This document shows positions 1,004-37,728 of a DNA stretch of 53,241 nt, piece after piece (position 1 is the stretch's first letter; each line of letters begins with the position of its first letter). The position numbers and the translations under genes are program-made. Location: IMG/VR virus record IMGVR_UViG_3300007619_000003, positions 1 to 53,241 of that record. The stretch is one strand, 5' to 3'. The DNA is from a virus (taxonomy: Duplodnaviria; Caudoviricetes). The notes under the pieces were generated by a model. That model was given only the letters and a program-made list of their open reading frames with translations, was not told where the DNA came from and searched no databases.

Positions 1004-1004
1004 C

Positions 1005-1013: not shown

Positions 1014-1020
1014 TTGGGGC

Positions 1021-1419: not shown

Positions 1420-1757
1420 GCAATCTGTGGGACGCGGCGGGAGAGCTGCTTCGGAAACACGCGGTCGAGGCGGCGCTGAGCGTCATCGTAGCGGCGGGCG
1501 GAGCCCTCGCGGCTTGGTTCCGCAAGAAGACCCGGGAGTGGAACGCCGTCAAGGAGACCGTCCGCGCGGTCGAGAACGAGTCGACGGAGCCGGGCGGCTG
1601 GGTCCCGGGCCCGGAGCGGCGGAAGCGTGCGCTCTCCCGGCTCCGGACGACCAACCCGGGGATCGGCACCGTCCGGGCGAGCCAGCTCATCGAGCAGGTG
1701 CTTCCCGACGTCCGGGCGGAGTCGGACCGTCCGCCGCCGCTCCCGAAGGACCGGTGA
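1416..1757 (+). CDS. Putative holin (single TM segment plus charged C-terminal domain)
   Basis: ATGA overlap with the endolysin; hydrophobic AALSVIVAAGGALAAWF followed by basic residues. Confidence 0.6.
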   Translation: MSNLWDAAGELLRKHAVEAALSVIVAAGGALAAWFRKKTREWNAVKETVRAVENESTEPGGWVPGPERRKRALSRLRTTNPGIGTVRASQLIEQVLPDVRAESDRPPPLPKDR

Positions 1758-1908
1758 CGCGGAATTGCCGCCGTCGTCGGGCGGGCTCAGGCGGCGACGC
1801 TGCGATCCGGCCCGGTCCGGGCGGTTCGTCGCAGCCGGGGCAAACGGGCTTAGAACGCCGATTTGGCGGTCTGGGCCTCGGCGCCCCGGTCTGGTACGGC
1901 GGGCCGGT

Positions 1909-2913
1909 ATGAGCGCTCTCTTCCCCGGGCTACTCGCCGCGCTACTCGCCCTCGCTGCCCCGCCCGGGCCGGAGGGCCACGCGGAGCGCCGGAACCGGCT
2001 GCGAGACGTCGCCGCCGTCGCGGCGCGGGAAGTCGACCGGGCCGTGATGACGGGCGCTCTCCCCGGCGCGGAGCGCCGGCTCTGGGCTGCCGCGGTCGCC
2101 GCGACGCTCGCGCGGGAGAGCGGGAACGTCTCGCGGGCGGTCCACGCGGGGAGCCGGCTCGGCGACTCAGGGCGGTCAATCTGCCTCATGCAGATCAACC
2201 TGGGCAACCTGGCCGGCTATGCGCCGAGTCCTACGTGGAGAGACGGCCGAGTTCCCCCTTCGTCGCGTCGGCTTCTGTGGAAACGGCTCGCCGGTCTGGA
2301 CGTCGAGTCGACTCGGCTCTGTGTCCGCGGCGGCGTCACCTCGCTCGCGCGGATGCGCCGCTACTGCCGGCGACGGGTCCCGCGCCGGGAGCTACTCGGC
2401 GCGGCGCTCTCCGCGTACATGCACGGGTCTAGCTGCGCGGTGAGCGACGAAGGGCGGAGACGTCTCGCTCTCGCGCGGGCGCTACACCGGCGGTATCTAC
2501 GGCGGGAGCTCGCCGATGAGCGCGACGGCTTCGGCCGGGGTAAGCTCGCCAGCGAGATAGTGGCTAATCGAATTGGCGTCGAGCGTCGAGCCGTCGCTGA
2601 GGTTCCAGACGCCGTCGACGGGCGGCGGCCCGACGACGACCAGGGGCGCGCCGGCTACCGTCTGTACTCCGCCGGCGCCGTCGGGGACCTGCTGCCGCGC
2701 GTTGCCGATGACGGTGCCGATGTTGAGATCAGAGACCGGGCGATAGTCGAGCAGCAGGTCCGGGCCACCCGACTCCAAGTCGCGCACGCGCTTGACCTCT
2801 CGCCCTCCGACCGAGCCCAGATGCTCCGTCGAGTTCTTCACTCCCCGCCCCCTTCCCGTACGCCGCGGCTGCGGCAGTCCGTCGCGTCGTCTCATAACAA
2901 CGGTGCCTTGTAA
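1909..2913 (+). CDS. Exported lytic transglycosylase (SLT/lysozyme-like)
   Basis: Signal-like N-terminus MSALFPGLLAALLALAAP, catalytic-type ARES, GDSGRSICLMQIN and a later ALSAY motif. The C-terminal ~135 codons overlap an antisense gene. Confidence 0.6.
   Translation: MSALFPGLLAALLALAAPPGPEGHAERRNRLRDVAAVAAREVDRAVMTGALPGAERRLWAAAVAATLARESGNVSRAVHAGSRLGDSGRSICLMQINLGNLAGYAPSPTWRDGRVPPSSRRLLWKRLAGLDVESTRLCVRGGVTSLARMRRYCRRRVPRRELLGAALSAYMHGSSCAVSDEGRRRLALARALHRRYLRRELADERDGFGRGKLASEIVANRIGVERRAVAEVPDAVDGRRPDDDQGRAGYRLYSAGAVGDLLPRVADDGADVEIRDRAIVEQQVRATRLQVAHALDLSPSDRAQMLRRVLHSPPPSRTPRLRQSVASSHNNGAL
2497..2841 (-). CDS. Hypothetical protein (114 aa)
   Basis: GTG start after a G/A-rich stretch; protein-like composition (KNSTEHLGSV...ELTPAEAVALIGELPP); last gene of the minus-strand block. 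Confidence 0.5.
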   Translation of the reverse strand: MKNSTEHLGSVGGREVKRVRDLESGGPDLLLDYRPVSDLNIGTVIGNARQQVPDGAGGVQTVAGAPLVVVGPPPVDGVWNLSDGSTLDANSISHYLAGELTPAEAVALIGELPP

Positions 2914-3740
2914 GCGTGCATGCCCGCGAGGTTCGCAGCCCCGAGTTCCGCGAGCGAGCCGGGGAACAGCCACATAACCCCGAGGTCGACGTTGTCTGGC
3001 GTCACGCTCATCATATACTGGTTGGTGTTCGGATCGAAAAGGATGGGGTCAGGCGACGCCGTGAACGTCGCCGCGAGATCTACCTGATCGTAAAAAATGG
3101 ACTGGCGTTCGGTCGCGGTGGGGTTCGACTCGTCAAACTCGGCGATGAGGAAATGCCACAGGCTGTCCGTCATCAAAGTGCTCGCTGGACGGTGCCGCTG
3201 CTGATTCGTTCCGTCATCCGAGACGTAAAAATCGAGCAAGCCAGTGTTAGTCCAAACTAGCCGAGGACCCCGGTCTCCAGCGCCAGCGCTGTGCTGCAGC
3301 ATGATTCCCGTGCCGGTGGGTGCCCCATCGGGGAAGCGCATCCAGCCGCCCATCACGAACGAGCCGGTATTGCCCCACTGCAGCGCAGACGAGCGACAAG
3401 TCCCGCTCGAGTCGAACCGGTACTGCGTGTAGCCGTTGTTGGTGATCTCGGACGGCTGGTTCGCGAGCGTCGTCTCGACCTGATTATACGCCGTGTCGCC
3501 GCTGCCCTCGGGCCAGGTCCAGCCCGCATCGCCGAGGTCGACGCCATCTTCCGGATCCCACCACCGAAGACCCGCCACGGACTCCGGCCCCCAGCTCCCG
3601 CTCGCTCGGATGCCCCGGCGCTTGCGAGCAACGCGCCGGCGGTGCGCGCGTGAGCTCGCTCGCTGTTTCTCCGGCGTCCAGATGCGACCGCTGTCGCCTT
3701 CGAACGGGACCCAGACTTCGCTACTGGGCTGCGCGATCAC
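2892..3740 (-). CDS. LamG/concanavalin-A-like domain protein (putative receptor-binding or virion accessory protein)
   Basis: GSFVMGGWMRF...LLDFYVS...LWHFLIAEFD...SIFYD pattern typical of LamG jelly-rolls; region visibly lower in GC. Confidence 0.65.
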   Translation of the reverse strand: MIAQPSSEVWVPFEGDSGRIWTPEKQRASSRAHRRRVARKRRGIRASGSWGPESVAGLRWWDPEDGVDLGDAGWTWPEGSGDTAYNQVETTLANQPSEITNNGYTQYRFDSSGTCRSSALQWGNTGSFVMGGWMRFPDGAPTGTGIMLQHSAGAGDRGPRLVWTNTGLLDFYVSDDGTNQQRHRPASTLMTDSLWHFLIAEFDESNPTATERQSIFYDQVDLAATFTASPDPILFDPNTNQYMMSVTPDNVDLGVMWLFPGSLAELGAANLAGMHAYKAPLL

Positions 3741-4333
3741 CGTTCGAAGCCGTCGACCTCGAACACCAGGCGCCCGGTACCGCCGGCGCCCATCAGGATT
3801 TCGTTGCGCACGAGGATGCCGTCGTCGTCGCCGAGGACGCAGACGACGTGCGGGTCGTCTTCGCCGCCCTTCTGTTCATCGATGAACCCGCGCTGGACGA
3901 TGGCGCTCGCCGCGAGCTCGCTGAAGCTCCCGCGGGCGAGCAGGGCGCCGATGGTCTGCGTGCCTGCCGTCAGCGCACCGGTCGTCCCGATGCGCCCGGA
4001 GAGCCCGGTCGCGTCGAGCCCCGGCGCCCGCGGGACGACGACGCCCGCAGTGCCGCCCGTGTGCGCGGCCGAGTAGGACGAGAGGAGAAACGCCGCGACG
4101 CTCATCTCCTGAGCAACGGTGAAGCCCGCCACCGTCTGCCAGGTGAAGCGAAGCCGCGTCACGTGAAACGACTTGAGCGGCGACGGCGCGACGTAGCGCA
4201 CGGCCGCGAGATGCCCGGCACTAGCGGTCCCCGCCGCGACTGTCGTCAGCAGTCCACTCGCCATGGTGAGCGAGTAGAAGTGAGCGCGCGACAGGCGCGT
4301 CGGGTCCTTGGTGGTATTTGGCCGCGCGGTCAT
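3737..4333 (-). CDS. Putative virion structural protein, paralogue A
   Basis: 198 aa; shares FYSL, TASAGHL, HTGGT, ALTAGTQT, VRNxxLM and FExDG with the neighbouring gene. Confidence 0.7.
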   Translation of the reverse strand: MTARPNTTKDPTRLSRAHFYSLTMASGLLTTVAAGTASAGHLAAVRYVAPSPLKSFHVTRLRFTWQTVAGFTVAQEMSVAAFLLSSYSAAHTGGTAGVVVPRAPGLDATGLSGRIGTTGALTAGTQTIGALLARGSFSELAASAIVQRGFIDEQKGGEDDPHVVCVLGDDDGILVRNEILMGAGGTGRLVFEVDGFER

Positions 4334-4339
4334 CGGACC

Positions 4340-4972
4340 CTATGCGGTCGGGGTATCGCGGAGCCAGCCGTCGAGCTCGAAGATCAGATGCCCCGCGATC
4401 CCGTTCGCCATCAGGACCGAGTTCCGGACGACCACGCCCTCGTTCGTTCCGAGGATGAAGAGCGGGTGCTTATCCGGGCTCTTCCATTCGTAGCCAAAGC
4501 GAGTGTGCTTGACCGTCGCGGCGTCGGCGAGGGCGAAGTCGTCGATGAAGCCGAGAGCTTCGGCGAACGTCTGGGTGCCCGCGGTCAGGGCGTCGGTCCC
4601 GGCGACGCGCGCCGTGATCGCCGTGATCGCGGGATAGGTCGGGGCACTCGCGCCGGCTTCCGCCCGGCTGACGGGGACCTGGTTCGCCGCTCCGGTACCA
4701 CCGGTGTGTAGCGCTGAGAACGCCGTGACCTTGTGAGCCTGGAAGCCGACGGCCTGCTCCGACGACGGGTCGACCGTCGCGAGGAAGCGCATCGCCATCC
4801 GCATGACGTGAAGCTCGCCCTGGGCGCCGGTATTCCGCATGCCGATGAGATGGCCCGCGGAAGCCGTCGCCGCGGCGACCGCGGTGATGGCGCCGGTCCG
4901 GGCGCGGAGCGAGTAGAACGCCGCTCGCTTGAGCTTGCCGACGTCGTTGAGGCGGGTAAGCGGTAGGACCAT
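4340..4972 (-). CDS. Putative virion structural protein, paralogue B
   Basis: 210 aa; AAAGGAAG RBS; paralogous to 3737-4333. Confidence 0.7.
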   Translation of the reverse strand: MVLPLTRLNDVGKLKRAAFYSLRARTGAITAVAAATASAGHLIGMRNTGAQGELHVMRMAMRFLATVDPSSEQAVGFQAHKVTAFSALHTGGTGAANQVPVSRAEAGASAPTYPAITAITARVAGTDALTAGTQTFAEALGFIDDFALADAATVKHTRFGYEWKSPDKHPLFILGTNEGVVVRNSVLMANGIAGHLIFELDGWLRDTPTA

Positions 4973-6011: not shown

Positions 6012-6235
6012 TCGCCGGTCCCCCTGTTGGCCGCCGCCCGGAGCCGTGATGCGTTCGCCGCGCTCGTCGCCATCGCTTCTGCCATCACTCGTCGCCCGCC
6101 TTCGATCTTGTCGACGTGCTCGACGACGCGAACGCCGCGGCAGTAGTGCTGAAGCCCGCCGCTGGGCATCGCCGGGCAGGGCGAAGTGTAGGTGCCCCAT
6201 GTCCCGCCGCAGACCGAACAACGCGGACGGCTCAC
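6008..6235 (-). CDS. Small Cys-containing hypothetical protein
   Basis: GTGA overlap with the sbcC stop; CSVC...C...HYC. Confidence 0.45.
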   Translation of the reverse strand: MSRPRCSVCGGTWGTYTSPCPAMPSGGLQHYCRGVRVVEHVDKIEGGRRVMAEAMATSAANASRLRAAANRGTGE

Positions 6236-8568
6236 AGGTCCACCCGCGAGTCCGCGAGCTCGGCGAGCTCTGCCGAGTGCGAGACGAAGAGAAGCTTGTC
6301 GGCGCCCATCATCGAGCAAGCCTGGCGGAGCATCGCGATCCAAGCCTGGCCGTTCTCCGGGTCGAGCGCGGCGCCGGCTTCGTCGCGGATGAGCGTCGGG
6401 CGGACGACGCCGAGCTCCCGGGACGCGAGCGTGGTCAGCGCGAGCGAAACGCCCTCGGCGATGATGGCCCGCTCGCCGCCGGAGAACGTCTCCGCCTTCG
6501 ACTCGCGGCCGGACTCGGAGTCGATGACGATGACGTCGAGCGTCTCGAGCGTCTTCTTACCGCGGGAGTCGAGCGACTGGCTCCGGACGTCGACCGTGAA
6601 CCGTGGACCGAAGCTCGAGTGCAGGAGCGAGTTCGTCATTGCGACGAGCTCGGGGAGCGCGGCGTCGATGACCGTGGCCTGCAGGCCGTCCTTGCCGAGA
6701 TCCGCGGCGAGCTTCTTCCAGTCCGCGAGTTCCACGCCGGCGACGGCCGCCTCCCGCTCGAGCTCGGCGAGCTTCTCCGCGCTCTTCTTCGCAGCTTCGA
6801 GTTCGCCCTGGGCGGCGCCGAGTTCCAGCGTCGCCGTCTCGTCCGCCTTCTCCGCGGCGCGGAGAGCCTCGTCGCTGGGGTCGATGCCGGTCACGGGCTC
6901 CGGGATGACGACGGCTCCGGCCGCGCGCTCGAGATCGTCGCGCGTCTCGGTCGCCGCTTCGAGCTGGGGGCCGAGTTCTTCGAGGCGGGCTTCCGCCGCG
7001 GCGAGCGGCTTCGCCAGGCGAGCGGTCTTCTCGAGCTTCGGGAGCCCGGCCTGTAGAGATGTCCGCTCGGCCGTCATCTCAGCGACGCGGTCGTCGAGCT
7101 CTTTCCGCTCCGCCGCGAGCCGGGTCTCCTCGGCGACGAGCTCGGCGAGCCGCGCTTCGCTCTTCCGCTTGTCCTCGGCGTAGCCGGCGAGAGCGTCGGC
7201 GCCGGCGGCGAATCGCTCCGTCTTCCGGAGCTCGTCCTCGAGCGCGCAGCGCTTCCGGTCGACGGCGTTCCGGTCCGCTTCGAGCCGAGCGACTTCATCC
7301 GGGGCGGCGACGGCTTCGTCGTCGCGGGAGAGCGTTGAGCCCGCGGTCTCCCGGGCGGCTTCGATCGACGAGTGCGAGTCCCGGATGGCGGCGAGCCCTT
7401 GCCGGAGCCCGGCGATCCGATCGCCGCTCGAGCGTTCCCGGGCCGCGTTGACTTCCTTCGTCAGCGTCCGGAAGTTGTCGGTCTCCGCGAGCACTCGCTC
7501 CTGGAGCCCGGGGAGTTCGTCGACGGCGGCGCGAACGGCGGCCTCGTTCGAGAGCGCCGCGTCGCAGCGCTGGACGCGGTCCTCGAGCTCCGCCCGTTGA
7601 CGTTCGACGTCGGCTCGTCTCGCGGAGATCCCCCGGAACTGCTGGAGAAGCCCGGTGGTCGAGAGTTCCGCGATGCGCGCGCTCGTCCTCTCGAGCTCGG
7701 TCTCCGCCGCCCGGATCTCGTCGGCCCGCCCGAGTATCGCCCGGTTGTTCGCGACCCGTTGGTCGAGCGCGGTGACGGCTTCGGTCGCCTTCCGTATTTG
7801 CTCCTGCAGCTCGTCGCGGCGCTGAAGCGCGGCGGTTCGCTCGGCGGCGAGCTTGTCCGCCTGGGCGGCGAGCGCCACCATCTGCGCGTGCTTCGCCCGC
7901 TCGTCCGCTACCCGCTCCGCCGCGACGTCCGCCGCCGCCATCTTCAGCTCGACCCGGGTCTCCGCGTCCGCGACGCTGACCGCCCGGTCGCGCTCGCTCT
8001 TGACCCGGTCCGCCGCGACGGTGAAGTCCCCGCTCGCGGAGCTCGCCCGCTTCCGCGCCTCGGCGGCGAGCGCCTCGAGCCGCTCGACGCCGAGCATTCG
8101 GAGCAGGAGCGTCTTCCGGTCCGCCGGGTCCGCGTCGATGAAGCCCTCGCTCTGCTGAGCCGCGATGGTCGTCACGAGCAGAACGTCGAACGGGGGGAAG
8201 TGCTCGGCGACGTACCGGTCGACCGCGGACCGCTTCGTCGACTCGACGAGCGGGCTCCCGTCGCCGTTGGTCAGGAGGGCGTCACCCTTCCGCCCGACGG
8301 AGTCGACGAGCTGCTTGATCCGGTAGCGCTGCCCGTCGTGTTCGAACGTCAACTCGACGAACGCGTCCCGCGCCGTCGCGAGATCGACGAGCGTCCCGCG
8401 GGTCGGCGTCGTCCGGAAGATCGCTCCGGGCATGGTCTCGAGCAGCGTCGACTTCCCGGAGCCGTTCGCCCCGCAGACGGCGACGAGCGGGCCGTGGAGT
8501 TCTTCGAGGTCAACGGCGAAGTCTTCGAACGGGCCGAGTCGATGGATGTGGTGCTTCAGATATCTCAT
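6232..8568 (-). CDS. sbcC: SbcC/Rad50-like SMC ATPase
   Basis: Walker A GANGSGKS, Q-loop AAQQ, long coiled coil, signature FSGGE, Walker B LIRDE, H-loop FVSH. Confidence 0.92.
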   Translation of the reverse strand: MRYLKHHIHRLGPFEDFAVDLEELHGPLVAVCGANGSGKSTLLETMPGAIFRTTPTRGTLVDLATARDAFVELTFEHDGQRYRIKQLVDSVGRKGDALLTNGDGSPLVESTKRSAVDRYVAEHFPPFDVLLVTTIAAQQSEGFIDADPADRKTLLLRMLGVERLEALAAEARKRASSASGDFTVAADRVKSERDRAVSVADAETRVELKMAAADVAAERVADERAKHAQMVALAAQADKLAAERTAALQRRDELQEQIRKATEAVTALDQRVANNRAILGRADEIRAAETELERTSARIAELSTTGLLQQFRGISARRADVERQRAELEDRVQRCDAALSNEAAVRAAVDELPGLQERVLAETDNFRTLTKEVNAARERSSGDRIAGLRQGLAAIRDSHSSIEAARETAGSTLSRDDEAVAAPDEVARLEADRNAVDRKRCALEDELRKTERFAAGADALAGYAEDKRKSEARLAELVAEETRLAAERKELDDRVAEMTAERTSLQAGLPKLEKTARLAKPLAAAEARLEELGPQLEAATETRDDLERAAGAVVIPEPVTGIDPSDEALRAAEKADETATLELGAAQGELEAAKKSAEKLAELEREAAVAGVELADWKKLAADLGKDGLQATVIDAALPELVAMTNSLLHSSFGPRFTVDVRSQSLDSRGKKTLETLDVIVIDSESGRESKAETFSGGERAIIAEGVSLALTTLASRELGVVRPTLIRDEAGAALDPENGQAWIAMLRQACSMMGADKLLFVSHSAELAELADSRVDL

Positions 8569-8697
8569 GAGGGGACCTTCCTCTTCTGGGGGGAGGGGGC
8601 GAGGGGGGCCGACGGTAGAGTGGCGACGGCGACGGGTCCAGTCACCGGCGGCGGACCGTGATGACGCGTAGCGCGCCCGCGATCTTCTCGGCGTCGC

Positions 8698-9852
8698 TCA
8701 CGACGCCTCCAGGTCGTGGAGCTTCGCGAGAAGCGGGTCGCGTCGGCCAACGCAGTCGTCGTTCGTCGAGTCCCAGTAGGCGACCAGCTTGTCGGCCACG
8801 GACAGAGCCCGTGCGACTTCCGGAGCCCGCGCCCGGGTCTCGATGCGGAGACGGTCCTCGACCTTCACCGTAGCGCCCGCGCCCCGGAGCTGCTCGGCTC
8901 GAGCTTCCGCCGCCGCCCTCGCCGGCTCCCGCTCGCTCGCCGCGACGTCGTACCGGAGCCGGACCTCGGCGCCAGCTCCGATTTGCGCGAGCTGCTCGGC
9001 CGTCAGATCCGTCACGAGCTCGCCGTCCTTCCACTCGCCCGAGACGTGGAGCATGGGCGGCGCCGGCGTCGGAATGCGATCCCACTCGACGCAGTGATTC
9101 CCGTCGAACGTAGCGACCACGTACCCCTTGTCCTCCGTCTCACCGAAGTTGCACCGGCGGGGCGAGCCCGGATAGACGACGGGGACGCGCCAGTTGCCGG
9201 CGTCGATCGCCCACTCCTGGCCGAGGTGGATGTGGCCGAGCGCCACGAAGTCCGCTTCCGCGCAGGCCAGGTCGTCGAGCGAGAGTTCGAGTTCCTGGCC
9301 GACGAGAGGCGGCTGGCTCGTACTCGTTCTACTCCCCCGGACCATCGCGTGAGAGAGAAGAATCCGCGGCTCCTCGTCCCGGGCCATCCCGCCCCAGCCG
9401 GTCAGGATGGCGCGCAGAGCGGTCTTCGCGTCGTCTTCTCCATTCCCCGCGTGTCCGGGCGGGAGCGACGCGAGTAGGTGCGCCGTCCGCGGCCAGGGCA
9501 GGAGGCAGAAGCGGAACCCGCCGAGTCGGATGGTCGCCGGCGACGAAGCCGCCCAGATGTCGTGGCCCCCAGCGAGCCGGTTCAGGAGGTCGATGTCGCG
9601 CGGGTCGTCGTGGTTGCCGGCGACGACGGCCAGCGGCATCTCGTCCGTGACGGCGGTCATCCACTCGGCGACCGCGATGCGTTCCTCCGATGTGCTCCGC
9701 CGTTCGAACACGTCGCCGGCGTGAGCCATCGCGTCGCAGCCCCGGGCCGCCGCGTCGGCGGCGATCCAGAGCATGATCCGCTTGTAGTCCTCGAAGCGGC
9801 TCCGCCCGTCAGCATGGGTATCGGCCACGAGCGCTAGTTTTCGGATGGTCAC
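8698..9852 (-). CDS. sbcD: SbcD/Mre11-like metallophosphoesterase nuclease
   Basis: ADTH, AGDVF, AGNHD, SHA, ALGHIH, YPGS motifs; adjacent to sbcC. Confidence 0.93.
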   Translation of the reverse strand: MTIRKLALVADTHADGRSRFEDYKRIMLWIAADAAARGCDAMAHAGDVFERRSTSEERIAVAEWMTAVTDEMPLAVVAGNHDDPRDIDLLNRLAGGHDIWAASSPATIRLGGFRFCLLPWPRTAHLLASLPPGHAGNGEDDAKTALRAILTGWGGMARDEEPRILLSHAMVRGSRTSTSQPPLVGQELELSLDDLACAEADFVALGHIHLGQEWAIDAGNWRVPVVYPGSPRRCNFGETEDKGYVVATFDGNHCVEWDRIPTPAPPMLHVSGEWKDGELVTDLTAEQLAQIGAGAEVRLRYDVAASEREPARAAAEARAEQLRGAGATVKVEDRLRIETRARAPEVARALSVADKLVAYWDSTNDDCVGRRDPLLAKLHDLEAS

Positions 9853-22600: not shown

Positions 22601-22749
22601 AGCTGGCGATTGAAGGGCAGTGGCTCGCCCCGAGGCGCTGCCCGAAGTGCCGACGGCTCATGTACGCTCACACTTGCGCGACCGATGACCGCTGCCAGCC
22701 TTGCCGTAACGCCGACCCGGAAGCGCGCCCGGAGCGGGGGCGGTCGTGA
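22597..22749 (+). CDS. Small zinc-ribbon protein
   Basis: CPKC...CQPC; coupled at both ends. Confidence 0.45.
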   Translation: MKLAIEGQWLAPRRCPKCRRLMYAHTCATDDRCQPCRNADPEARPERGRS

Positions 22750-24449
22750 AGCTCCGTCTCGCGGACGGGCTCTCGATGGACGCGAGCGAAGCGGCGACGC
22801 AGACGTTCGCGGCGCTCGCGGGGAAGGGCCAGGGCAAGAGCTACCTCGCGGGGAAGTTCGTCGAGCAGCTCGTCGGGGCGAGCTGCCCGACCGTCGTCGT
22901 CGAGCCCGTCGGGAACTGGTGGCCGCTCCGGCTCGGGAAGGACGGCAAGTCGCCGGGGCTCCCGATCGTCGTGATCGGCGGAGAGCACGGAGACGTCCCG
23001 GTCGAGCCGACGCAGGGCGCGGAAGTCGGGCGGTTCCTCGTCGAGACGAACGGCTCGGCCGTGATCGACGTCTCCGGCTTCTCGAAGACGAAGCGGCAGT
23101 CGTTCGTCGCCGACTTCGCCGAAGCGTTCTACATCGCGAGCCGGAAGGCGGCGACGCCCCGGATGCTCGTCCTCGAAGAGGCGCAGGTCTTCGCGCCCCA
23201 GCACGCGGCGCGCGGCCAGGAGCGGATGCTCGGCGCGATGACGGACATCGTCCGGCTCGGTCGCAACCACGGGATCGGGTCGATGCTCGTCAGCCAGCGG
23301 CCGCAGAGCGTCTCGAAAGAAGTCCTGAACATGGTCGAGTGCCTGTTCGTCGGCGGGATGCGCGGCCCGCACGAGCGGAAGGCGATCGCGGGCTGGGTGA
23401 CGGAGCAAGCCGACGGCGAGGGAGAAGTCGCGGCGCAGCTCCGGCGGCTCCCGGAACTCCAGCCCGGGGACTTCTTCTGCTGGTCCCCGTCCTGGCTCTC
23501 CGTCGCGAAGCCGATCCGCGTTCTGCCGAAAGACACCTTCGACGGGACGTCGACGCCGAAGCTCGGCGGCTCACGTGCGCGGGCGCCGAAGCTCGCCCCG
23601 GTCGACGTCAGCGCGCTGACCGCCGCGCTCACCCCGCCCGCGAAGGAGCCGCCGAAGCCGGGGAGCGGGCCGTCGAACCACGCGCATGTCGAGCGGGAAC
23701 TCCGGGGCGAGCTCGCCGAAGCGAAGCGGCGTCTAGCGGCTTCGCTCGCGGAGGGCGCCGAGCTCCGGGAAGGGCTCCGTCAGATACACGCGGCGCTCGA
23801 CCGACTTCTTGCGACGATGGAAAGCACGACGCTCGGGAAGAGTTTCCCGGGCGAGCCTGTGCCGGCGAATGGGCGCGGAGACGCGGAGCAGGGGGGATGG
23901 GCTCCCCGCCCGCCCGCGCTCGCTCTCGCCGCCGGCGACGACGCCGCTACGGTAGGCGGGCGCCCGACGAAGAACGGGGCTAGCGCGTCGGGAGACTACG
24001 CGCTCGCCCTTCTCCGCTCGCTCGTCGCCTACGGGCCGTCGACGCGGCTCCGGCTCTCGCTCGTCTCCGGGAAGAGCCGGACGAGCTCGACGTTCGCCGC
24101 CGCGCTCCGGGAGCTGAAGGCGGTCGGGCTCGTCGAAGAGTCCAGCGGGGAGCTACGCGCAACCGCGGACGGGAAGCAGAGCGCCGGGAAGGTCGCCGTC
24201 CCGAAGGGTTATGAGCTCTTCGACCACTGGTGCGCGCGGCTCGCCGCGTACGACCGCAGGAACTTCCAGGTGCTCGCCGGTCGCGCCCGGGGGTACACTC
24301 GGGCAGAGCTATCGGACATGACCGGCCACTCCCGGACGAGCTCGTCGTTCGCGGCGAGTCTCCGGCGGCTCCGTGGGCTCGGCCTGGTCAGCGAGTCCGG
24401 CGGCGCGTTACGTATCAGCGACCAAGCGAAGGAGACGATGGAGCTATGA
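22746..24449 (+). CDS. HerA/DUF87-like P-loop ATPase with duplicated C-terminal wHTH
   Basis: AGKGQGKS, VVVEPVGNW, LVLEEAQVFAPQ, GRNHGIG, SQRPQ; two repeats of TRxxLS...SRTSSxFAAxLRxL...GLVxES. Confidence 0.85.
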   Translation: MKLRLADGLSMDASEAATQTFAALAGKGQGKSYLAGKFVEQLVGASCPTVVVEPVGNWWPLRLGKDGKSPGLPIVVIGGEHGDVPVEPTQGAEVGRFLVETNGSAVIDVSGFSKTKRQSFVADFAEAFYIASRKAATPRMLVLEEAQVFAPQHAARGQERMLGAMTDIVRLGRNHGIGSMLVSQRPQSVSKEVLNMVECLFVGGMRGPHERKAIAGWVTEQADGEGEVAAQLRRLPELQPGDFFCWSPSWLSVAKPIRVLPKDTFDGTSTPKLGGSRARAPKLAPVDVSALTAALTPPAKEPPKPGSGPSNHAHVERELRGELAEAKRRLAASLAEGAELREGLRQIHAALDRLLATMESTTLGKSFPGEPVPANGRGDAEQGGWAPRPPALALAAGDDAATVGGRPTKNGASASGDYALALLRSLVAYGPSTRLRLSLVSGKSRTSSTFAAALRELKAVGLVEESSGELRATADGKQSAGKVAVPKGYELFDHWCARLAAYDRRNFQVLAGRARGYTRAELSDMTGHSRTSSSFAASLRRLRGLGLVSESGGALRISDQAKETMEL

Positions 24450-26794: not shown

Positions 26795-27112
26795 ATGCCG
26801 GGCGAGCCAGCAGGCGGGAGAACGCGGTCGGCGGAGGACGTCGAGGCCGACCGAGCGGAGCAGGCGGAGCTCGCCGCGCTCTGCGGCCAGCGTCTGAAGG
26901 CGGCCCGGAAGCACCGCGGTTGGACGCAGTACGACCTCGCGGAGAAGAGCGGCATCTTTCAGGGCCACATCTCCCACTTCGAGTGCGGCATCCGCGTCCC
27001 GCTCGTTCGGAACTTATTAAAGCTCGCCGATGCGCTGGGCCGCTCGACGGACTTTCTTCTCGGTCGCACGACCATCGAGCTCCCCGACCCACCGGCGAAG
27101 AAGTCGACCTGA
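26795..27112 (+). CDS. XRE-family HTH transcriptional regulator
   Basis: RLKAARKHRGWTQYDLAEKSGI...ISHFECG...LADALGRSTDFLLGR. Confidence 0.9.
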   Translation: MPGEPAGGRTRSAEDVEADRAEQAELAALCGQRLKAARKHRGWTQYDLAEKSGIFQGHISHFECGIRVPLVRNLLKLADALGRSTDFLLGRTTIELPDPPAKKST

Positions 27113-27759
27113 TGGCAGCGAAGAAGAAGCGCGCGGCAAAGAAGACCCGGGCCCGGCCGCAGGCCAAGGTGACGGGGAAGGTCGTCATGGCCCGGCTCGA
27201 CCGCGTCCGCCCGAACGACTGGAACCCGAACCGGATGACCGAGTTCCAGATGGAGTCGACCCGCGAGGGTATGCGGACCGGCGGCTGGCTCGCCGCGTAC
27301 GCGCTCCTGGTCTGGGGGAAGGACGAGAAGGGGAAGCGCCGCGACGTCATCATCGACGGCGAGCATCGCTGGCGGATCGCGAACGAGCTCGCGATGCCCG
27401 AAGGGCCGATGGTCTTTCTCGACGGGCTGACCGAGAGAGAAGCGAAGAAGCTGACCATCGCGCTCGACAACAAGCGGGGCGACTTCGACCGCGTCGCGCT
27501 CCGGGACCTGATCGGCGACATCGGCGTCGTCGACGGTCTCGGCTTCGAGCTCGGCTTCGACGAGGCGAGCTTCACGGCCCTGATGGACCCGGGGAACCCG
27601 CTCCCCCCGGGCGACTTCTCGTCCGTCGACATCAACGCGAAGACCACTTACTGCTGCCCGAAGTGCGGCTATGAGTGGAACGGCGCCCCTGCGGCGAAGA
27701 CCGCGAAGAAGACCGCGAAGAAGAAGACGAGCAGGCGAGCGGCATCGGCGGGAGCGTGA
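27112..27759 (+). CDS. ParB/Srx N-terminal-like domain protein with C-terminal zinc ribbon
   Basis: PNDWNPN, IIDGEHRW, CCPKCGYEW; Lys-rich termini; TGATG coupling. Confidence 0.85.
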   Translation: MAAKKKRAAKKTRARPQAKVTGKVVMARLDRVRPNDWNPNRMTEFQMESTREGMRTGGWLAAYALLVWGKDEKGKRRDVIIDGEHRWRIANELAMPEGPMVFLDGLTEREAKKLTIALDNKRGDFDRVALRDLIGDIGVVDGLGFELGFDEASFTALMDPGNPLPPGDFSSVDINAKTTYCCPKCGYEWNGAPAAKTAKKTAKKKTSRRAASAGA

Positions 27760-28892
27760 AGCCGCCGTTCCGGCTCCCGTCGATGGCCGAAGTCGCGGCG
27801 GCGCGCGGTACCGCCGGGCTGACCGTCGCCTCGACGTTCGCCGGCTGCGGCGGCTCCTGTCTCGGCTTCGAGATGGCCGGCTTCCGAACGGTCTGGGCGA
27901 ACGAGTTCGTCCCCGCGGCGCGCGAAGTCTACGCGGCGAACCACCCGGGCGTTCCGCTCGATGACCGCGACATCCGGAAGGTCCAGCCCGCCGACGTCCT
28001 GGGCGCCGTCGGGCTCGAGCGCGGCGAGCTCGACGTCCTGAACGGCTCCCCGCCCTGCGCGTCGTTCTCCATGAGCGGAAAGCGAGACGCCCACTGGGGG
28101 GAGGTCAAGAAGTATTCGGATAGGAAGCAGCGGACCGACGACCTGTTTTTCGAGTTCGTCCGTCTGCTCGACGGAATCCAGCCCCGGGCGTTCGTCGCGG
28201 AGAACGTAGCGGCGATCACGCAGGGGGTGGCGGTCGGATACTTCAAGGAGATCGTCCGCGCGCTCGAGGGCGCCGGCTACCGCGTCGCCTGCCGGATACT
28301 CGACGCTCAGTGGCTTGGGGTTCCTCAGACCCGGCGGCGAGCGATCATCCTCGGCGTCCGAAAGGATCTCGACCGAGAGCCCGACTTCCCGAAGCCACTC
28401 GGCTATCGGTACTCACTCCGCGACGTTCTCCCCGACCTGAAGCGCCGCGCCGCGATGGTCGGTCCCGGGCTCGTCCGCGACGGCTCCATCGTCGGGACGG
28501 CCATCGAGAAAGAGTGGCGGAAGCTTACCCCGTACCGGGGTAAGCTCCGAGAGTGGGCGCGGCTCCACCCGGGGCAGAAGTCGAGCAAGTACCTGAACCT
28601 GATCCGCGCGAGCCCGGACGAGCCCTCGCCGTGCATCACCGCCGCCGGCGGCGGGCGGGGCGTCGCGTCGGTCACGCACCCGTACGAGCCGCGGAAGTTT
28701 TCGATCGACGAGCTCCGCCGGGTCTGCGGCTTCCCCGCCGATTTCGTTCTGACGGGTACGTATCAGCAGCAGTGGGAGCGACTCGGCCGCGCAGTCCCGC
28801 CGCCGATGATGCGCGCCGTCGCGGCCGCGCTCCGGGACGGGCTCTTCACCGAGCTCGACCGGACGCGGCGGAAGTTCCGGGAGGCGAGCTGA
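27756..28892 (+). CDS. DNA cytosine-C5 methyltransferase homologue, predicted carboxymethyltransferase (motif X Asn-to-Arg)
   Basis: Motif I FAGCGG, IV GSPPCASFS, VI AENV, VIII PQTRRR, IX ELRRVCGFP, X LGRAVPP. Confidence 0.92.
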   Translation: MKPPFRLPSMAEVAAARGTAGLTVASTFAGCGGSCLGFEMAGFRTVWANEFVPAAREVYAANHPGVPLDDRDIRKVQPADVLGAVGLERGELDVLNGSPPCASFSMSGKRDAHWGEVKKYSDRKQRTDDLFFEFVRLLDGIQPRAFVAENVAAITQGVAVGYFKEIVRALEGAGYRVACRILDAQWLGVPQTRRRAIILGVRKDLDREPDFPKPLGYRYSLRDVLPDLKRRAAMVGPGLVRDGSIVGTAIEKEWRKLTPYRGKLREWARLHPGQKSSKYLNLIRASPDEPSPCITAAGGGRGVASVTHPYEPRKFSIDELRRVCGFPADFVLTGTYQQQWERLGRAVPPPMMRAVAAALRDGLFTELDRTRRKFREAS

Positions 28893-29596
28893 TGGCCGAC
28901 GAGAGTTCGATCGGGCATCTGCCCGACGGGAAGTGGGAGTTCGACATGAGCGTGACCCGGGTCTTCGACGACATGATCGCGCGGAGCATTCCGCAGTACG
29001 ACGCGCTTCGCGGTCTCGTCGCTTCGCTCGCCCGGCGCTTCGGCGCCGATGGCGGGACCGTCCTCGACCTCGGATGCTCGACGGGCCTCTCCATCGAAGC
29101 GCTCGCCGGGAAGGCTCGCCGCGTCGTCGGCGTCGAGATCAGCGAGTCGATGCTCGACGTCGTCCGCACGAAGTTCGTCAGCTACGGGAACGTGGAGATC
29201 GAAGCGCTCGACCTCCGCCACGACTTCCCGGAGATCGATGGCGTCGACGTCGCGCTCGCCGTCTTCACGCTACAGTTCGTCCCGGTCGAGTACCGCGCCG
29301 GGGTCGTCCGCCGGGTCTTCGACTCGCTGGCTCCCGGCGGGGCGTTCATCGTCGCGGAGAAAGTCCTCGGCGAAACGGCGACGACGCAGGCGGCGTTTGT
29401 CGACGTCTATCACGCGTTCAAGGAAGAGCAGGGCTACAGCCGGGAAGAAGTCGACCGGAAGGCGCTCTCGCTCGAAGGACGACTCGTCTCCCTGACCCCG
29501 GCCGGCAACGAGGGTCTACTCCGCGCCGCTGGCTTCTACCGCGCCGAGTGCTTCTGGCGCTGGGCGAACTTCACGGCCTGGCTGGCCATCAAGTAG
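28892..29596 (+). CDS. cmoA: CmoA-like carboxy-S-adenosyl-L-methionine synthase
   Basis: WEFDxxVxxVFDDMIxRSIPxY, DLGCSTG, FTLQF, LAPGGxxIxAEK, FKxxxGYS, AGF...NF all match the CmoA pattern. Confidence 0.85.
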   Translation: MADESSIGHLPDGKWEFDMSVTRVFDDMIARSIPQYDALRGLVASLARRFGADGGTVLDLGCSTGLSIEALAGKARRVVGVEISESMLDVVRTKFVSYGNVEIEALDLRHDFPEIDGVDVALAVFTLQFVPVEYRAGVVRRVFDSLAPGGAFIVAEKVLGETATTQAAFVDVYHAFKEEQGYSREEVDRKALSLEGRLVSLTPAGNEGLLRAAGFYRAECFWRWANFTAWLAIK

Positions 29597-29601: not shown

Positions 29602-30201
29602 GTGGCGGGTCGACCGAAGCGGCGCTCGAAGAAGAAGCTCGAGGAGTCTGCGCGCGAGAAGCGGGCGCGGGAGACGCTCCAGGCGGAGCGGCTCGAGCAG
29701 GAGCAGATGATCCTGACGACGATGAGCCAGGGGCGCTGGGTCCCGGGGGTTACGCCCCTCCAGCTAGCGAAGCAGTGGGGCGTGACGCAGAACGTCGTCG
29801 TTCAGCTCTCGCGGAAAGCGAGCGCGACGCTCCGGTCGCTCTCGAAGATGACGCCCGAGTTCCGGGAAGAAGTCCTCGCCGAGTGTCTCCAGACCTTCCG
29901 GACGATCCGGGCGTTCGCCCTCTCGAAGGCCTCGGTCCCCGACGAGCGGAACCCGGCGCCGCTACTCGACGTCGCCCTGCGGGCCACGCGCGCCCTCGGG
30001 CAGTACACTGGGGTGGAGCCCGATGGCCGACGCGACGACGACGACAAGACGCACGACCCGTTCAGCGGCTGGAGCCGGCAAGAAATCGAAGACTACGTCT
30101 CGGGCCGGAAAGCCCGACGCGCGCTCCCGGAAGGCGTCGGCGAGTTCGAAACGATCGGCGAAGAAGTCGACGACGAGAGCGGCGAAGCCGCCGTCCACTG
30201 A
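29602..30201 (+). CDS. terS: Putative terminase small subunit
   Basis: HTH-like QLAKQWGVT, helical body; immediately upstream of terL. Confidence 0.6.
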   Translation: MAGRPKRRSKKKLEESAREKRARETLQAERLEQEQMILTTMSQGRWVPGVTPLQLAKQWGVTQNVVVQLSRKASATLRSLSKMTPEFREEVLAECLQTFRTIRAFALSKASVPDERNPAPLLDVALRATRALGQYTGVEPDGRRDDDDKTHDPFSGWSRQEIEDYVSGRKARRALPEGVGEFETIGEEVDDESGEAAVH

Positions 30202-31714
30202 CCTCCGGAGCCTGAGCGACGACGAGCTCCGGACGCGCGCGCTCGCGCGCCGGCGGCTCGACGAGATGGACGCCGAGTTCGATCTCCGGACGTTCATGAG
30301 CCTGTACTCCCCACGGCTCGGGGACCCGTACCATCTCGCCGAGCTCTGCGAAGCGCTCGACGAGTCGATGAAGCGCCCGGTCATCATCCTCGCGGAAGCG
30401 CCGCCCCGTCACTGGAAGACGGTGACGATTCTCCACCACATCGCGCGACGGCTGAAGTACCGCCCGACCGAGCAAAACGCGTACGGGACTTACTCCGGCG
30501 GGCTCGCGTTCCGGAAGTCCCGGCTCTGCCGCGAGTACGCGGGACGCGCCGGCGTCTTCGCTCGACCGGCGGAGCTCCACCTCGGCCCGGGCGAGAAGGC
30601 GAAGGACCCGGCGGCGACGGTCAGCTTCTGGCAGACGCCGCAGGGCGGCGGGCTCGTCGCCGGCGGCCGCCACGGCGCGTTCGTCGGCGAGGGCTTCGGG
30701 TTCATCTACATCGACGACCCGTTCAAAGACCGGCCGGAAGCGGAGTCGGAGAAGATTCAGGACGCGGTTTACGAGGGGATGTTCCAGGGGACGATGTTCA
30801 CCCGTCTCGAGCCGGGCGGTTCGATCTGCATCTCCCACCAGGCGTGGAACGACCGCGACCTGAACGCCCGGCTCCGCGAGTGGGCGGTCGAAGAAGGGCT
30901 CGGCGCCGAGGTCATCGACATCCGACTGCCCGCCGTCTCTCGCGCGACGTACGACCGGCGCGGGCGCCTGACCGGCGGCGTCCCGCTCCACCCGGGGCGC
31001 TACAACATCCGCGCGCTCCGGCGGATCCAGCAGGCGATCAGCGACTACAACTTCGAGAGCCAGTACCAGCAGAAGCGGGTCCCGCGCGGTAAGCGGATCT
31101 TCGTCGAGCCGCAGATGTACGACGAGCCGAACTTCGACGGCGCGATCGTCCTCGTCTCCTGCGACCCGGGCATCGTCAAAGACAAGAAGAAGGACCCGAG
31201 CGGGTTCGTCGTTACGTCGGGCTATCTCGACCGCGGCGGCTCGGTCTGCATGGACGTCCTGTTCGCCGAGGAGCGCCATGAGGAGATCCCCGAGACGGTC
31301 GACGCGCTCGAAGAACTCCACGAGGACTTCTTCCACTCGCCGATCCTGCTCGAGGAAGTCTCGGCGTTCAAAGCGGTCAGCCAGATCGCGCGACGGCTCG
31401 ACCAGGAGCGGACGAAGCGGGGCGAGCAGCCCGCGAACCTTCCCATCGAGAGCTGGCTCCCGGAGGGTTCGAAGTTCGTCCGCGCGCTCCCCTGCGCCGG
31501 CGGCGTCCGCTTCGGTCGCGTCCGGGTCCCGAAGACCGGCTTTTGGGTCCCGGCTTTCCGGAAGCAGATGCGGCGGTTTACCGGCCGAGAGGGCGGAAAG
31601 GACAACATGATCGACGCCCTGACCCAGGCGTACGACTGGTACGACAAGAATCTCGCGAGCGCCGGGCTCCGCTCCCGGACCGGCGGAGAGCGGGAGATGG
31701 CCTCAGGATTCTGA
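30023..31714 (+). CDS. terL: Terminase large subunit (start may be later, e.g. ATG 30266)
   Basis: Walker A PPRHWKT, Walker B IYIDDP, ESQYQQ, nuclease SCDPG...KDNMIDALTQA. Confidence 0.92.
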   Translation: MADATTTTRRTTRSAAGAGKKSKTTSRAGKPDARSRKASASSKRSAKKSTTRAAKPPSTDLRSLSDDELRTRALARRRLDEMDAEFDLRTFMSLYSPRLGDPYHLAELCEALDESMKRPVIILAEAPPRHWKTVTILHHIARRLKYRPTEQNAYGTYSGGLAFRKSRLCREYAGRAGVFARPAELHLGPGEKAKDPAATVSFWQTPQGGGLVAGGRHGAFVGEGFGFIYIDDPFKDRPEAESEKIQDAVYEGMFQGTMFTRLEPGGSICISHQAWNDRDLNARLREWAVEEGLGAEVIDIRLPAVSRATYDRRGRLTGGVPLHPGRYNIRALRRIQQAISDYNFESQYQQKRVPRGKRIFVEPQMYDEPNFDGAIVLVSCDPGIVKDKKKDPSGFVVTSGYLDRGGSVCMDVLFAEERHEEIPETVDALEELHEDFFHSPILLEEVSAFKAVSQIARRLDQERTKRGEQPANLPIESWLPEGSKFVRALPCAGGVRFGRVRVPKTGFWVPAFRKQMRRFTGREGGKDNMIDALTQAYDWYDKNLASAGLRSRTGGEREMASGF

Positions 31715-34524: not shown

Positions 34525-37500
34525 GTGGCGAAGCGGCGAAGACGACGCAAGCGGTATAACGACGGCCAGCAGCTGAGGGGCGTCGAGGCGGTGCAGCCGG
34601 CGCACGGCATTCTCAGGGGCCGCTACTTCCCGAACGTCCCGCGGGAAGAGGCGTACCGCCCGCACTTCGGCCGGTCGCTCACTCTCCAGACGATCGACGC
34701 GGCCATCCGGTCGCTCGAGGTGGGACTGATGCGCCGGTTCACCGACATCGCGACGGAGTCGCTACGGCTCGACCTCCACGCGTCGGCTCTTTGGCAGAAA
34801 CGTCTCAACCGGCTCGGCGCGCTCGACTGGCGCGTGAAGCCGGCGAGCGGCGATGGGGTCGAAAAGCAGCGGGCAGAGGACTACGCAGGCTTTGTGCGCC
34901 AACAGCTCGAGCAGATGCCGAGCTTCCGTCAGGTGTTACTCGACGCCAACCAGGCGACGTTTCACGGGCGCTCCGCCGGCGAGCTCGAGTGGGAGCTCGT
35001 CCGATCCCGCTGGCGCGTCTGCGACGTCCACTGGATTCACGCACGACGTCTCTCGTTCGGGCCGAACCGCGACCTGCGCATTATCGACCTCAACCGCGAG
35101 GTCGCCGACTTTCGGGACGAGGGCTTCGCCCTCGAGACGATCCCGTACAAGTTCCTACCGTACAAGCCGCGCATCTTCGGCGAGTACCCCGAGCGCGAAG
35201 GGCTCGCTCTCCGCTCGACGTTCTGGTCGTTCTTCGGTCGGGTCATGGAGCGGGAGCGGCTCCATCTCATCGAGATCTTCGGCAAGCCCTGGCGCGTCGG
35301 GATCGTCAAGGACTCGGCGAAGAACGGCACGACCATCAACCAGGACCAGATCGACGACGCGTTCGATTCGCTCAACCGACTCGGGGGACACTCTACCGCC
35401 GTCCTGCCCCTCGACATGGATCTGCTGATCGCTCAGCCGCAGCGGGGCGCGGGAGAGATTCACGAGCAGGCGATCGACCATGTCGAGAAAGCTCAGTCGA
35501 AGCTCTTCCTCGGCGGTACCGCGACGACGGACGCCGTCTCGACCGGACTCGGATCGACCATCGGGGACGCGCACACGAACGAAGAAGATCTCATCATCGC
35601 GAGCGACGCCTGGCGGCTCTCCGAGGTCATCGAGCGGTTCCTGACGGACGCGATCATCGTCGTCAACTTCGGCCCGGAAGCTATCACTCACGCTCCCGAG
35701 TTCGAGGTCGTTACCGAGCCGCCACTCGACCGCGCCGCGGAAGCCGAGCTGATCGACAAGACGCTCTCGGTCGGAGTGGATATCGCGCTTTCCGAAGCGC
35801 GCGAGCGGCTCGGCGTACGCGAGATCGACCCGGACGAGCCGTATCTCCGGAAGGCACCGCGCAACCTGAATGGCCAGGTCCCCGCCTACCTACCCCAAGC
35901 CGAGGTGATCTACCCAAGCGGGCTCCCGGACGCCGGTAGGATCCGAGACGTCCCGGAAGTCCCGGGCGCGTTCCCGATCGGCGAGCGCCCGCTCCCGCCT
36001 GAAGACCCGCTCGCTAGCGGCTTCGGCGATGGCCCCCCCCGGCTACCCCCGGCGCCGGACAACCCGGCCCTACCACCCGTCGGAGAGACGGTAACCGCCA
36101 GCGAGGACGAGCTCGGCGACGCGGACATCGAAGCGCTCGCCGCGCAGATGACGGAGCACCGCGTTCAGAAGTGCGCTCACGGCCACAAGAACCGCTGCTG
36201 GAAGTGCGGCGTCGAGCGGGTCCGCGGTCTCGAGCTCGACGACGACGGGACGCCGCTGACCGACGCCGACGGCGAGCACGTCTGGCAGGTAGCCTGGCGA
36301 CCTATCAAGAAAGTGGCGAGCGCGCGCCGACTCGCGTCGACCGCGCCCGGCTCCGATGGAGGGCTACACGCGCACCGGCTCGACCGGGCGGAAGAGAGTA
36401 CGGCTCTCGACGGGCCGCACGCGCACGCGTACCGGCTCCCCGGGGGGCAGGTCGTTTACACGGAGATCGGCGGAGCGCATGAACATGAGATCGACCGGCA
36501 CGGCGACTTCGTCTGGGGCGGCCGGCACGCCCACTGGCTGACGCTCCCGAGCGGGGACCGGCTCCGGACGGAAGTCGACGGGGACCACTCCCACGACCTC
36601 CTGGTCGACGAGACCGCCCCTGGTGGCATGCACTGCCATGCGCTCGTTCTCCCCGACGGCGCGACGGTCGAGAGTCTACGCGTCCGGGATGCGGTCGACG
36701 ATGGACTCGGGCTCCGGGCGACGGCGACGGCGGTCGAGCGCTACGGCGGGACGGTCTGTCTCGCGGAGCAGCCCTCGACCGTCTTCGGCTCCCCTGATGA
36801 CCTGATGAAGCGCGGCGTCCCGGACGTCGCGAAGGCGATGGGCTCGTTCGCGGCGCGCATCGCGAACGCCGTCGACGGGAAGAAGACGCCCCGGGCGATC
36901 CGTTCGGCGCTCGCCGGTATCCGGAACCCGGAGCGGGGCGCGGTCCGCGAAGCGCTCCGCCGCGAGCTTCTAACCGGGCTGATGCTCGGCGCGCTCGACT
37001 CCGCGTTCGAGGGGGACGAAGAAGTCGAGATCGAAGTCGAGACGTTTAGCGCGCTTCAGGCGGAGGTCCGGCGGCTCCTGACGTCGCGGAAGCTACTCGT
37101 CGATACCGATCCGAAGTTCGTCGAGCACCCGATGGCGGAGGCGATTCGCGTCTTCGAGAGCCGCGAGGTCGTCACGCCGGAGGTCTTTCGGGAGCTGAAC
37201 TCCGTCGCTCGCCAGCGGGCGTTTACCATCGCCGGTCTCGCCGACGAAGAGCTGCTCGCCACCGCCCGGGCGGAGCTGAGCCGCCGTATCAAGGAGGGCG
37301 CTGACCTCGCGAACTTCCGGGATTTCGTCGCGGAGCGGCTCGAGGGCGCGGGCTGGACGCCGACGAACGCGTCGCACGTCGAGACGATCTTCCGGAACAA
37401 CGTCCAGGCAGCCTACTCGGGCGGGCGGTGGCGTCAGATGAGCCAGCCCGACGTCGCCGACGCGCGCCCGTACCTCCAGGTGCTCACGCCCAACGACGGC

Positions 37501-37728
37501 CCGCCCCGCCAGCGCCCGAACCATCAGGCGACTCACGGGAAGATCTTCCGCGTCGATGACCCCGCTTTTCCCGCCGCTCTCCCGCCCTGGGACCACAACT
37601 GTCGGTGCCGTATCCGCTCGCTTTCGAAGCGACAACTCGCAGGGCGACGAGCGACGAACGGGTCGTGGCTCTCGTCTCAGGGGCTACCCGCTCCGGGCTT
37701 CGGAGGGGGCGCGGCGGGCTTCGCTTGA
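34525..37728 (+). CDS. Mu gp29/DUF935-like portal protein fused to a Mu gpF-like head morphogenesis domain
   Basis: Portal motifs D.H..A..QKR, A.FHGRSAGELEW, EIFGKPWRVG, SKLFLGGT; C-terminal RAFTIAG, ETIFRNNVQAAYSGGRW, RPNH, PPWDHNCRC. Confidence 0.88.
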   Translation: MAKRRRRRKRYNDGQQLRGVEAVQPAHGILRGRYFPNVPREEAYRPHFGRSLTLQTIDAAIRSLEVGLMRRFTDIATESLRLDLHASALWQKRLNRLGALDWRVKPASGDGVEKQRAEDYAGFVRQQLEQMPSFRQVLLDANQATFHGRSAGELEWELVRSRWRVCDVHWIHARRLSFGPNRDLRIIDLNREVADFRDEGFALETIPYKFLPYKPRIFGEYPEREGLALRSTFWSFFGRVMERERLHLIEIFGKPWRVGIVKDSAKNGTTINQDQIDDAFDSLNRLGGHSTAVLPLDMDLLIAQPQRGAGEIHEQAIDHVEKAQSKLFLGGTATTDAVSTGLGSTIGDAHTNEEDLIIASDAWRLSEVIERFLTDAIIVVNFGPEAITHAPEFEVVTEPPLDRAAEAELIDKTLSVGVDIALSEARERLGVREIDPDEPYLRKAPRNLNGQVPAYLPQAEVIYPSGLPDAGRIRDVPEVPGAFPIGERPLPPEDPLASGFGDGPPRLPPAPDNPALPPVGETVTASEDELGDADIEALAAQMTEHRVQKCAHGHKNRCWKCGVERVRGLELDDDGTPLTDADGEHVWQVAWRPIKKVASARRLASTAPGSDGGLHAHRLDRAEESTALDGPHAHAYRLPGGQVVYTEIGGAHEHEIDRHGDFVWGGRHAHWLTLPSGDRLRTEVDGDHSHDLLVDETAPGGMHCHALVLPDGATVESLRVRDAVDDGLGLRATATAVERYGGTVCLAEQPSTVFGSPDDLMKRGVPDVAKAMGSFAARIANAVDGKKTPRAIRSALAGIRNPERGAVREALRRELLTGLMLGALDSAFEGDEEVEIEVETFSALQAEVRRLLTSRKLLVDTDPKFVEHPMAEAIRVFESREVVTPEVFRELNSVARQRAFTIAGLADEELLATARAELSRRIKEGADLANFRDFVAERLEGAGWTPTNASHVETIFRNNVQAAYSGGRWRQMSQPDVADARPYLQVLTPNDGPPRQRPNHQATHGKIFRVDDPAFPAALPPWDHNCRCRIRSLSKRQLAGRRATNGSWLSSQGLPAPGFGGGAAGFA

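Follow-up and report, generated by a model that had tools for sequence, protein, structure and literature searches.

The window analysed here, which is the whole of IMG/VR record IMGVR_UViG_3300007619_000003 (53,241 nucleotides, linear, estimated 88% complete), carries a pair of overlapping genes that appear to form a CmoA-CmoX DNA modification unit, located just upstream of the terminase genes of a tailed phage. In the reading we favor, with a probability of roughly 0.8 on the basis of sequence and fold comparisons, the CmoA homolog supplies carboxy-SAM (Cx-SAM) and the adjacent DNA methyltransferase (MTase) homolog uses it to write 5-carboxymethylcytosine (5cxmC) through the mechanism typical of C5-MTases, Arg345 serving to hold the carboxylate. 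The gene pair belongs to an already published system, and adds one candidate to a family of thousands.

According to this scheme, the CmoA homolog would convert SAM and host prephenate to Cx-SAM, which the MTase homolog would bind through Arg345; Cys101 would then attack C6 of cytosine, and the carboxymethyl group would be transferred to C5. The carboxylate of 5cxmC probably stays free, and because CmoY, the partner that acts on it in the published system, was not detected, the pathway probably ends with free 5cxmC. Protection from host restriction is the likely purpose, by analogy with the published phage, and a link to packaging is suggested by the gene position together with earlier predictions for ParB-terminase loci (PMC4738411, PMC8256090).

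The published system was characterized by Yang et al. (Nat Commun 2025; PMC12783734) as CmoA, CmoX and CmoY of Synechococcus phage S-B43. The S-B43 CmoA makes Cx-SAM; its CmoX (SpCmoX) accepts Cx-SAM only, not SAM, and writes 5cxmC in GC motifs, giving a product that resists HhaI. Arg350 of SpCmoX replaces Asn304 of HhaI, and the R350N mutant has no activity with either cofactor. Glycine is added by CmoY; in S-B43 virion DNA, 5cxmdC was present as the glycine amide, with none of it free. A comparison of wild-type and delta-cmoA Escherichia coli has already been published for this system. The same paper lists 5,615 CmoX candidates, defined by SPPC plus R350, whose neighbors include 4,257 CmoA, 2,251 ligase and 1,660 ParBc genes (PMC12783734). 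Both enzyme steps and HhaI resistance are thus published for S-B43; for the window, the activities of CmoA and the MTase, the end product and the purpose are predicted from residue equivalence, fold and gene linkage. The first-pass proposal of Cx-SAM synthesis, 5-carboxymethyl-dC and restriction protection is supported to that extent, by analogy with S-B43.

Examination of the MTase bore out its description as an intact C5-MTase. The open reading frame begins with GTG, matches Pfam PF00145 (E 1.5e-54) and TIGR00675 (166 bits, cut-off 100.65), and contains FAGCGG, SPPC (residues 98-101), ENV, QTRRR and a motif X that reads QQWERLGRAVPP. Its top PDB match is SpCmoX itself (8YF3, E 2.5e-63; 40.5% identity over 336 aligned positions). 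All nine SpCmoX active-site residues named by Yang et al. (F25, E47, F48, D69, S95-P96-P97-C98 and R350; PMC12783734) are kept, as F28, E50, F51, D72, S98-P99-P100-C101 and R345, so that both the SPPC motif and the R350-equivalent arginine of the published definition are present. The canonical motif-X asparagine of SAM-dependent C5-MTases is absent: the CGC codon that had been singled out from the sequence encodes Arg345, and this residue aligns both with Arg350 of SpCmoX and with the asparagine of DNMT1 GNAVPP. Since 106 of the 120 closest homologs (the window protein included) carry Arg at this position and 14 carry Asn, Arg345 is no sequencing accident. The variable region aligns poorly to that of SpCmoX and differs from it, and the GC target therefore need not carry over to the window enzyme. 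Word counts were uninformative as to the target site: GGCC is under-represented across the window (285 observed versus 470 expected from trimers), possibly reflecting avoidance of a host restriction site, and the GC odds are 1.0. As a separate observation, 14 of the 120 closest MTases contain a second copy of motifs IX-X (for example, P0122, P0123, P0124, P0125, P0127 and P0128), which is N-terminal, before motif I, in 13 of the 14 and resembles a circular-permutation intermediate.

The MTase and cmoA frames overlap at TGATG (28890-28894), as described previously, and the cmoA frame is intact. Its product has TIGR00740 (CmoA) as top NCBIfam match (E 3.4e-44), scoring 151.3 bits against a cut-off of 193.3; the validated S-B43 CmoA (SpCmoA) scores lower still (115.6 bits). 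The best PDB sequence matches are YecO and CmoA, and phrog_4752 is matched over its full length (E 8.4e-64). An AlphaFold model (pLDDT 91) has 4gek as top Foldseek match (TM 0.81), and the top six rows are all CmoA/YecO (TM 0.81-0.82). In a CmoA tree, phage-type proteins lie on a branch separate from bacterial CmoAs (SH-aLRT 97).

The local gene order is HTH regulator, ParB-like gene, MTase, cmoA, probable small terminase and large terminase (Table 1). No gap separates the ParB-like gene, which overlaps the MTase start (GTGA), from the MTase, or the MTase from cmoA, and the cassette is closed. The ParB-like protein scores below the cut-off against Pfam ParB_N (E 0.07). The frame downstream of cmoA had no match in a PHROG search, and is probably the small terminase subunit given its position. 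Searches of the contig by tblastn and profiles revealed no CmoB, in agreement with the first-pass annotation, and no tRNA genes were found in it. Two CmoY queries also had no match to the 88%-complete contig (tblastn, best E 0.53), nor did the PF00733 profile (asparagine-synthetase-like ligase), with about 12% of the genome estimated to be missing. This lack of a detectable CmoY, the directly adjacent ParB-like gene and the absence of two E. coli CmoA residues, Arg199 and Asn132, had escaped the first-pass annotation. Elsewhere in the window we observed an SbcC/SbcD-like pair (6232-9852, minus strand), a 567-aa P-loop ATPase (22746-24449) whose PHROG matches are all partial, and a 1067-aa protein (34525-37728) in which a His-rich repeated segment lies between a portal region and a minor-head-protein region. 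PHROG profiles identify terminase, portal, major head, tail sheath and tape-measure genes, and the phage has a contractile tail.

Table 1. Features of the cassette in the window and ParB-ParB-Rossmann genes of related phages. Coordinates refer to the sequence named.
Feature	Sequence	Coordinates	Strand	Basis or remark
ParB-like protein, C-terminal CCPKC motif	window	27112..27759	+	PHROG 620 ParB-like, E 2.4e-15
CmoX-type DNA cytosine-C5 carboxymethyltransferase candidate, 378 aa	window	27756..28892	+	8YF3 match and conserved residues
SPPC catalytic motif, Cys101 = SpCmoX Cys98	window	28047..28058	+	
Motif-X Arg345 codon CGC = SpCmoX Arg350	window	28788..28790	+	alignment
Phage-type CmoA, Cx-SAM synthase candidate, 234 aa	window	28892..29596	+	TIGR00740, PDB, Foldseek, phrog_4752
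Probable terminase small subunit	window	29602..30201	+	position only, between cmoA and terminase large subunit
Terminase large subunit ORF	window	30023..31714	+	phrog_38, E 3.9e-44; true start may be further in
ParB-ParB-Rossmann protein	L173	6442-7989		
ParB-ParB-Rossmann protein	L105	2262-3782		
ParB-ParB-Rossmann protein, gp2	Gordonia phage Evaa (L260)	702-2237		cultured phage
ParB-ParB-Rossmann protein	HJ05 (L261)	1032-2624		cultured phage
ParB-ParB-Rossmann protein	SM1 (L262)	3149-4705		cultured phage

Similar to S-B43, the window phage has a C5-MTase homolog with SPPC and a motif-X arginine, an adjacent cmoA and no cmoB, and its ParB-like gene corresponds to the ParBc neighbor reported for the CmoX family (PMC12783734). 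Unlike S-B43, it has no detected CmoY, its gene order is ParB-cmoX-cmoA-terminase rather than cmoA-cmoY-cmoX, and its proteins share only 40% (CmoX) and 31% (CmoA) identity with the S-B43 enzymes. The closest cultured MTase (53.5% identity) is encoded in Streptomyces phage TurkishDelight, in which gp122-125, known to us as the genes of an annotated record, follow a ParB-MTase-...-cmoA order and include a CmoA with Ala at position 199; a ligase gene with a glutamine amidotransferase domain lies between its MTase and cmoA. The engineered carboxymethyltransferases M.MpeI N374K and M.CviPI variants have likewise shown that a basic residue at the motif-X asparagine permits Cx-SAM use (PMC13288465, PMC8829811), a likeness drawn from these reports; they differ in being engineered, in having Lys (M.MpeI) and in lacking a dedicated synthase gene. 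With the CmoA/CmoB pathway for tRNA cmo5U in E. coli, the window shares the CmoA fold and SAM-binding residues, but neither cmoB nor a tRNA gene, and Asn132 and Arg199 are replaced. Phage loci with a modifying enzyme and ParB beside terminase have been predicted to act with packaging (PMC4738411); the examples considered are adenine methylases, and CmoA goes unmentioned in the main text of that paper.

The first-pass annotation had raised the question whether the motif-X arginine and cmoA co-occur across phages, and in the loci surveyed they do. Among the best 80 of 547 confirmed viral MTase relatives, all 80 carry Arg and 79 have cmoA within the locus; 65 loci also match the window ParB-like protein (BLAST) and 30 match CmoY. 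Two scans for Asn-type relatives gave 32 loci (26 with a motif Asn, five with the motif not visible and one without a match), and cmoA is present in none of the 26, 24 of which have at least 2.5 kb of downstream sequence; several of these loci are near-duplicates with finite flanks, so the counts are not independent. Searching from the CmoA side, we found a C5-MTase in 47 of 162 loci, with Arg in all 43 in which motif X is visible, and cmoB in none of the 162. The Asn-type close relatives (loci L341-L372) carry WARLGNAVPP or WERLGNSVPP, and include P0123, P0124, P0125, P0127, P0132, P0133, P0134, P0140, P0161, P0167, P0181, P0199 and P0209. A 13-member Asn clade close to the window MTase (SH-aLRT 100) sits within the Arg proteins in each of the two trees, and a second clade of seven members is likewise surrounded by Arg proteins in the best tree, for which distant Asn enzymes served as the root. 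This nesting suggests reversion from Arg to Asn, and possibly a natural return to SAM use in these cmoA-less relatives. Reversion is not proven, as an AU test did not reject grouping the 13-member clade with the distant Asn outgroups (p 0.289).

It is the CmoA active site that speaks most against the first-pass model. Using E. coli numbering, the window protein retains Tyr39, Gly64, Ser66, Asp117, Glu164, Lys165 and Lys198, but Asn132 is replaced by Val124, Arg199 by Ala191 and Val205 by Arg197. Arg199 has been described as the key residue for carboxylate binding in the E. coli enzyme (Byrne et al. 2013, PMC3663124). However, the active SpCmoA also lacks both residues, having Glu188 and Leu122 at the sites of Arg199 and Asn132, so that the idea that loss of Arg199 marks a dead CmoA is largely rejected. 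To place this change in context, we surveyed 202 non-identical CmoAs with an assignable neighbor, leaving out 101 of 303 that had none. Arg199 is kept in all 23 cmoB-linked proteins, in 57 of 114 linked to CmoX and in 58 of 65 linked to a second acceptor (see below), and Lys198 is invariant. Of the 64 CmoAs without Arg199, 44 have an arginine at one of positions 203, 205 and 207, as against none of the 138 with it, although these are related sequences and the counts are not independent. Among the 120 closest homologs, Arg is found at 205 in 21 of 35 Ala-type and one of 79 Arg-type proteins. These patterns lead us to hypothesize that the carboxylate-binding arginine has moved, to Arg197 (position 205) in the window protein; the candidate substitute in S-B43 CmoA is at 203. 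Strict compensation by Arg197 is not established, as 14 of the 35 Ala-type homologs do without it.

Other variants were seen among the surveyed proteins. A CmoX-linked group of 38 (L264-L268, L272, L276 and similar) combines Glu at 199 with Arg at 207. Three further residues, Glu at 34, Phe at 132 and Asp at 164, are found at nearly equal frequency (37, 38 and 38 CmoAs), and the sequences of this group suggest a reorganized active site. P0027 (406 aa) combines a CmoA domain with a PF00733 (Asn synthase) match, a possible CmoY-CmoA fusion or read-through. Seven phage-type cmoA loci with long flanks (L166, L168, L182, L183, L185, L186 and L187) have no match to CmoX, CmoB, CmoY or the second acceptor, and may contain a further acceptor type.

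The residue changes in CmoA and the modest identity to the only validated enzymes count against the favored reading. An alternative that we consider improbable is a decaying cassette, in which a true carboxymethyltransferase is paired with a weak or dead Arg199-less CmoA and any Cx-SAM is of host origin. The Ala at the Arg199 position and the retention of Arg199 in every cmoB-linked CmoA fit such decay, and the Asn clade near the window MTase together with the cmoA-less Asn loci suggests that lineages close to this one can lose the system. Decay is disfavored by the intact cmoA frame, by the invariance of Ala191 in all 29 aligned clade members at 55-80% identity, by the lack of Arg199 in half of the CmoX-linked CmoAs as well as in active SpCmoA, and, among related sequences, by the restriction of Arg at 203, 205 or 207 to proteins without Arg199. 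Less probable again is that the first gene encodes a conventional 5mC methyltransferase using SAM and that the small methyltransferase next to it is unrelated. Pfam and NCBIfam do name a plain C5-MTase, and the CmoA score is under the family cut-off, but the coupling of Arg to cmoA (79 of the best 80 of 547, versus none of 26 Asn-type loci), the failure of SpCmoX, with the same arginine, to use SAM (PMC12783734), and a second gene whose fold and profile are closest to CmoA all argue otherwise.

Somewhat likelier than either, though still unlikely, is that 5cxmC is only an intermediate, which a ligase or other enzyme converts to an amide or ester. This is compatible with the favored CmoA-MTase pathway for its first two steps, and would agree with the virion DNA of S-B43 and with the CmoY matches in 30 of the best 80 related loci; as the linear contig is 88% complete, the ligase may sit in the missing part, or else be an unrecognized gene. 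Against this, neither the CmoY queries nor PF00733 had a match in the contig, and the window cassette is closed, whereas the ligase lies inside the cassette in both S-B43 and TurkishDelight. In the published tally, too, ligases are about half as frequent as CmoA (PMC12783734).

In related phages, outside the window, the acceptor slot of a ParB-acceptor-cmoA arrangement holds a protein of about 505 aa instead of CmoX. It joins a pair of ParB-like parts to a class I Rossmann domain (hereafter, ParB-ParB-Rossmann), matches phrog_5475 (function unknown), and has conserved NSFRR, DFGAG, VLNSVPF and PKVQKYH motifs, with no PPC and no C5-MTase motifs. Among 260 sequences with a CmoA match (259 loci and the window), 79 have this protein, 56 have a C5-MTase and none has both; its gene is upstream of cmoA wherever positions are listed. 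When this protein was searched for in its own right, cmoA was present in 76 of the best 80 of 318 viral loci, and in all 75 with at least 1.5 kb downstream, although cmoA-linked members had been used to build the query and seed contigs are among the matches, which favors high linkage. These 80 loci have no CmoY match and three C5-MTases, all distant Asn types. A distant member in E. coli phage 613R2 (22% identity), our single control, has neither cmoA beside it nor NSFRR. In the cultured phages Evaa, HJ05 and SM1, the gene is beside or near a CmoA-like gene, and the next gene is annotated as terminase in Evaa and as hypothetical in HJ05 and SM1. In a tree of 121 representative CmoAs, 14 linked to ParB-ParB-Rossmann interleave with 88 linked to CmoX, giving nine changes, at least four of them forced by strong branches.

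These associations make the ParB-ParB-Rossmann protein a candidate second Cx-SAM-using enzyme; alternatively, it may simply use SAM, or its substrate may be protein or RNA. A fold search gave no clear target, the best rows being class I methyltransferases with tied scores (METTL6 at Z 13.4, with 203 positions aligned at rmsd 3.6, followed by Z 12.8), and no title among the 50 listed matches names a DNA amino-methyltransferase, which does not exclude one. Our searches of open-access literature listings revealed no description of it, and Yang et al. report finding no N6-adenine or N4-cytosine carboxymethylation candidates (PMC12783734). A broader reading, whose chances we see as evenly balanced, is that of a modular ParB-acceptor-cmoA-terminase cassette in which the acceptor has been swapped repeatedly, ParB-ParB-Rossmann being a second natural enzyme that carboxymethylates DNA with Cx-SAM, but one that acts on a different atom (adenine N6 or cytosine N4, for instance), and the window phage having free, unligated 5cxmC and a CmoA with a moved carboxylate-binding arginine.

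The window pair represents a ligase-free, high-GC member of the CmoX family with a divergent variable region, and is a possible tool enzyme with another target. Its CmoA and relatives indicate that phage CmoAs can do without Arg199. Because R350N alone inactivates SpCmoX, the Asn-bearing relatives without cmoA may reveal how cofactor choice switches. If the ParB-ParB-Rossmann protein acts on DNA, it would be the source of a new natural modification in phages that are already cultured, and under the broader reading cultured phages, Gordonia phage Evaa among them, would contain an unreported base.
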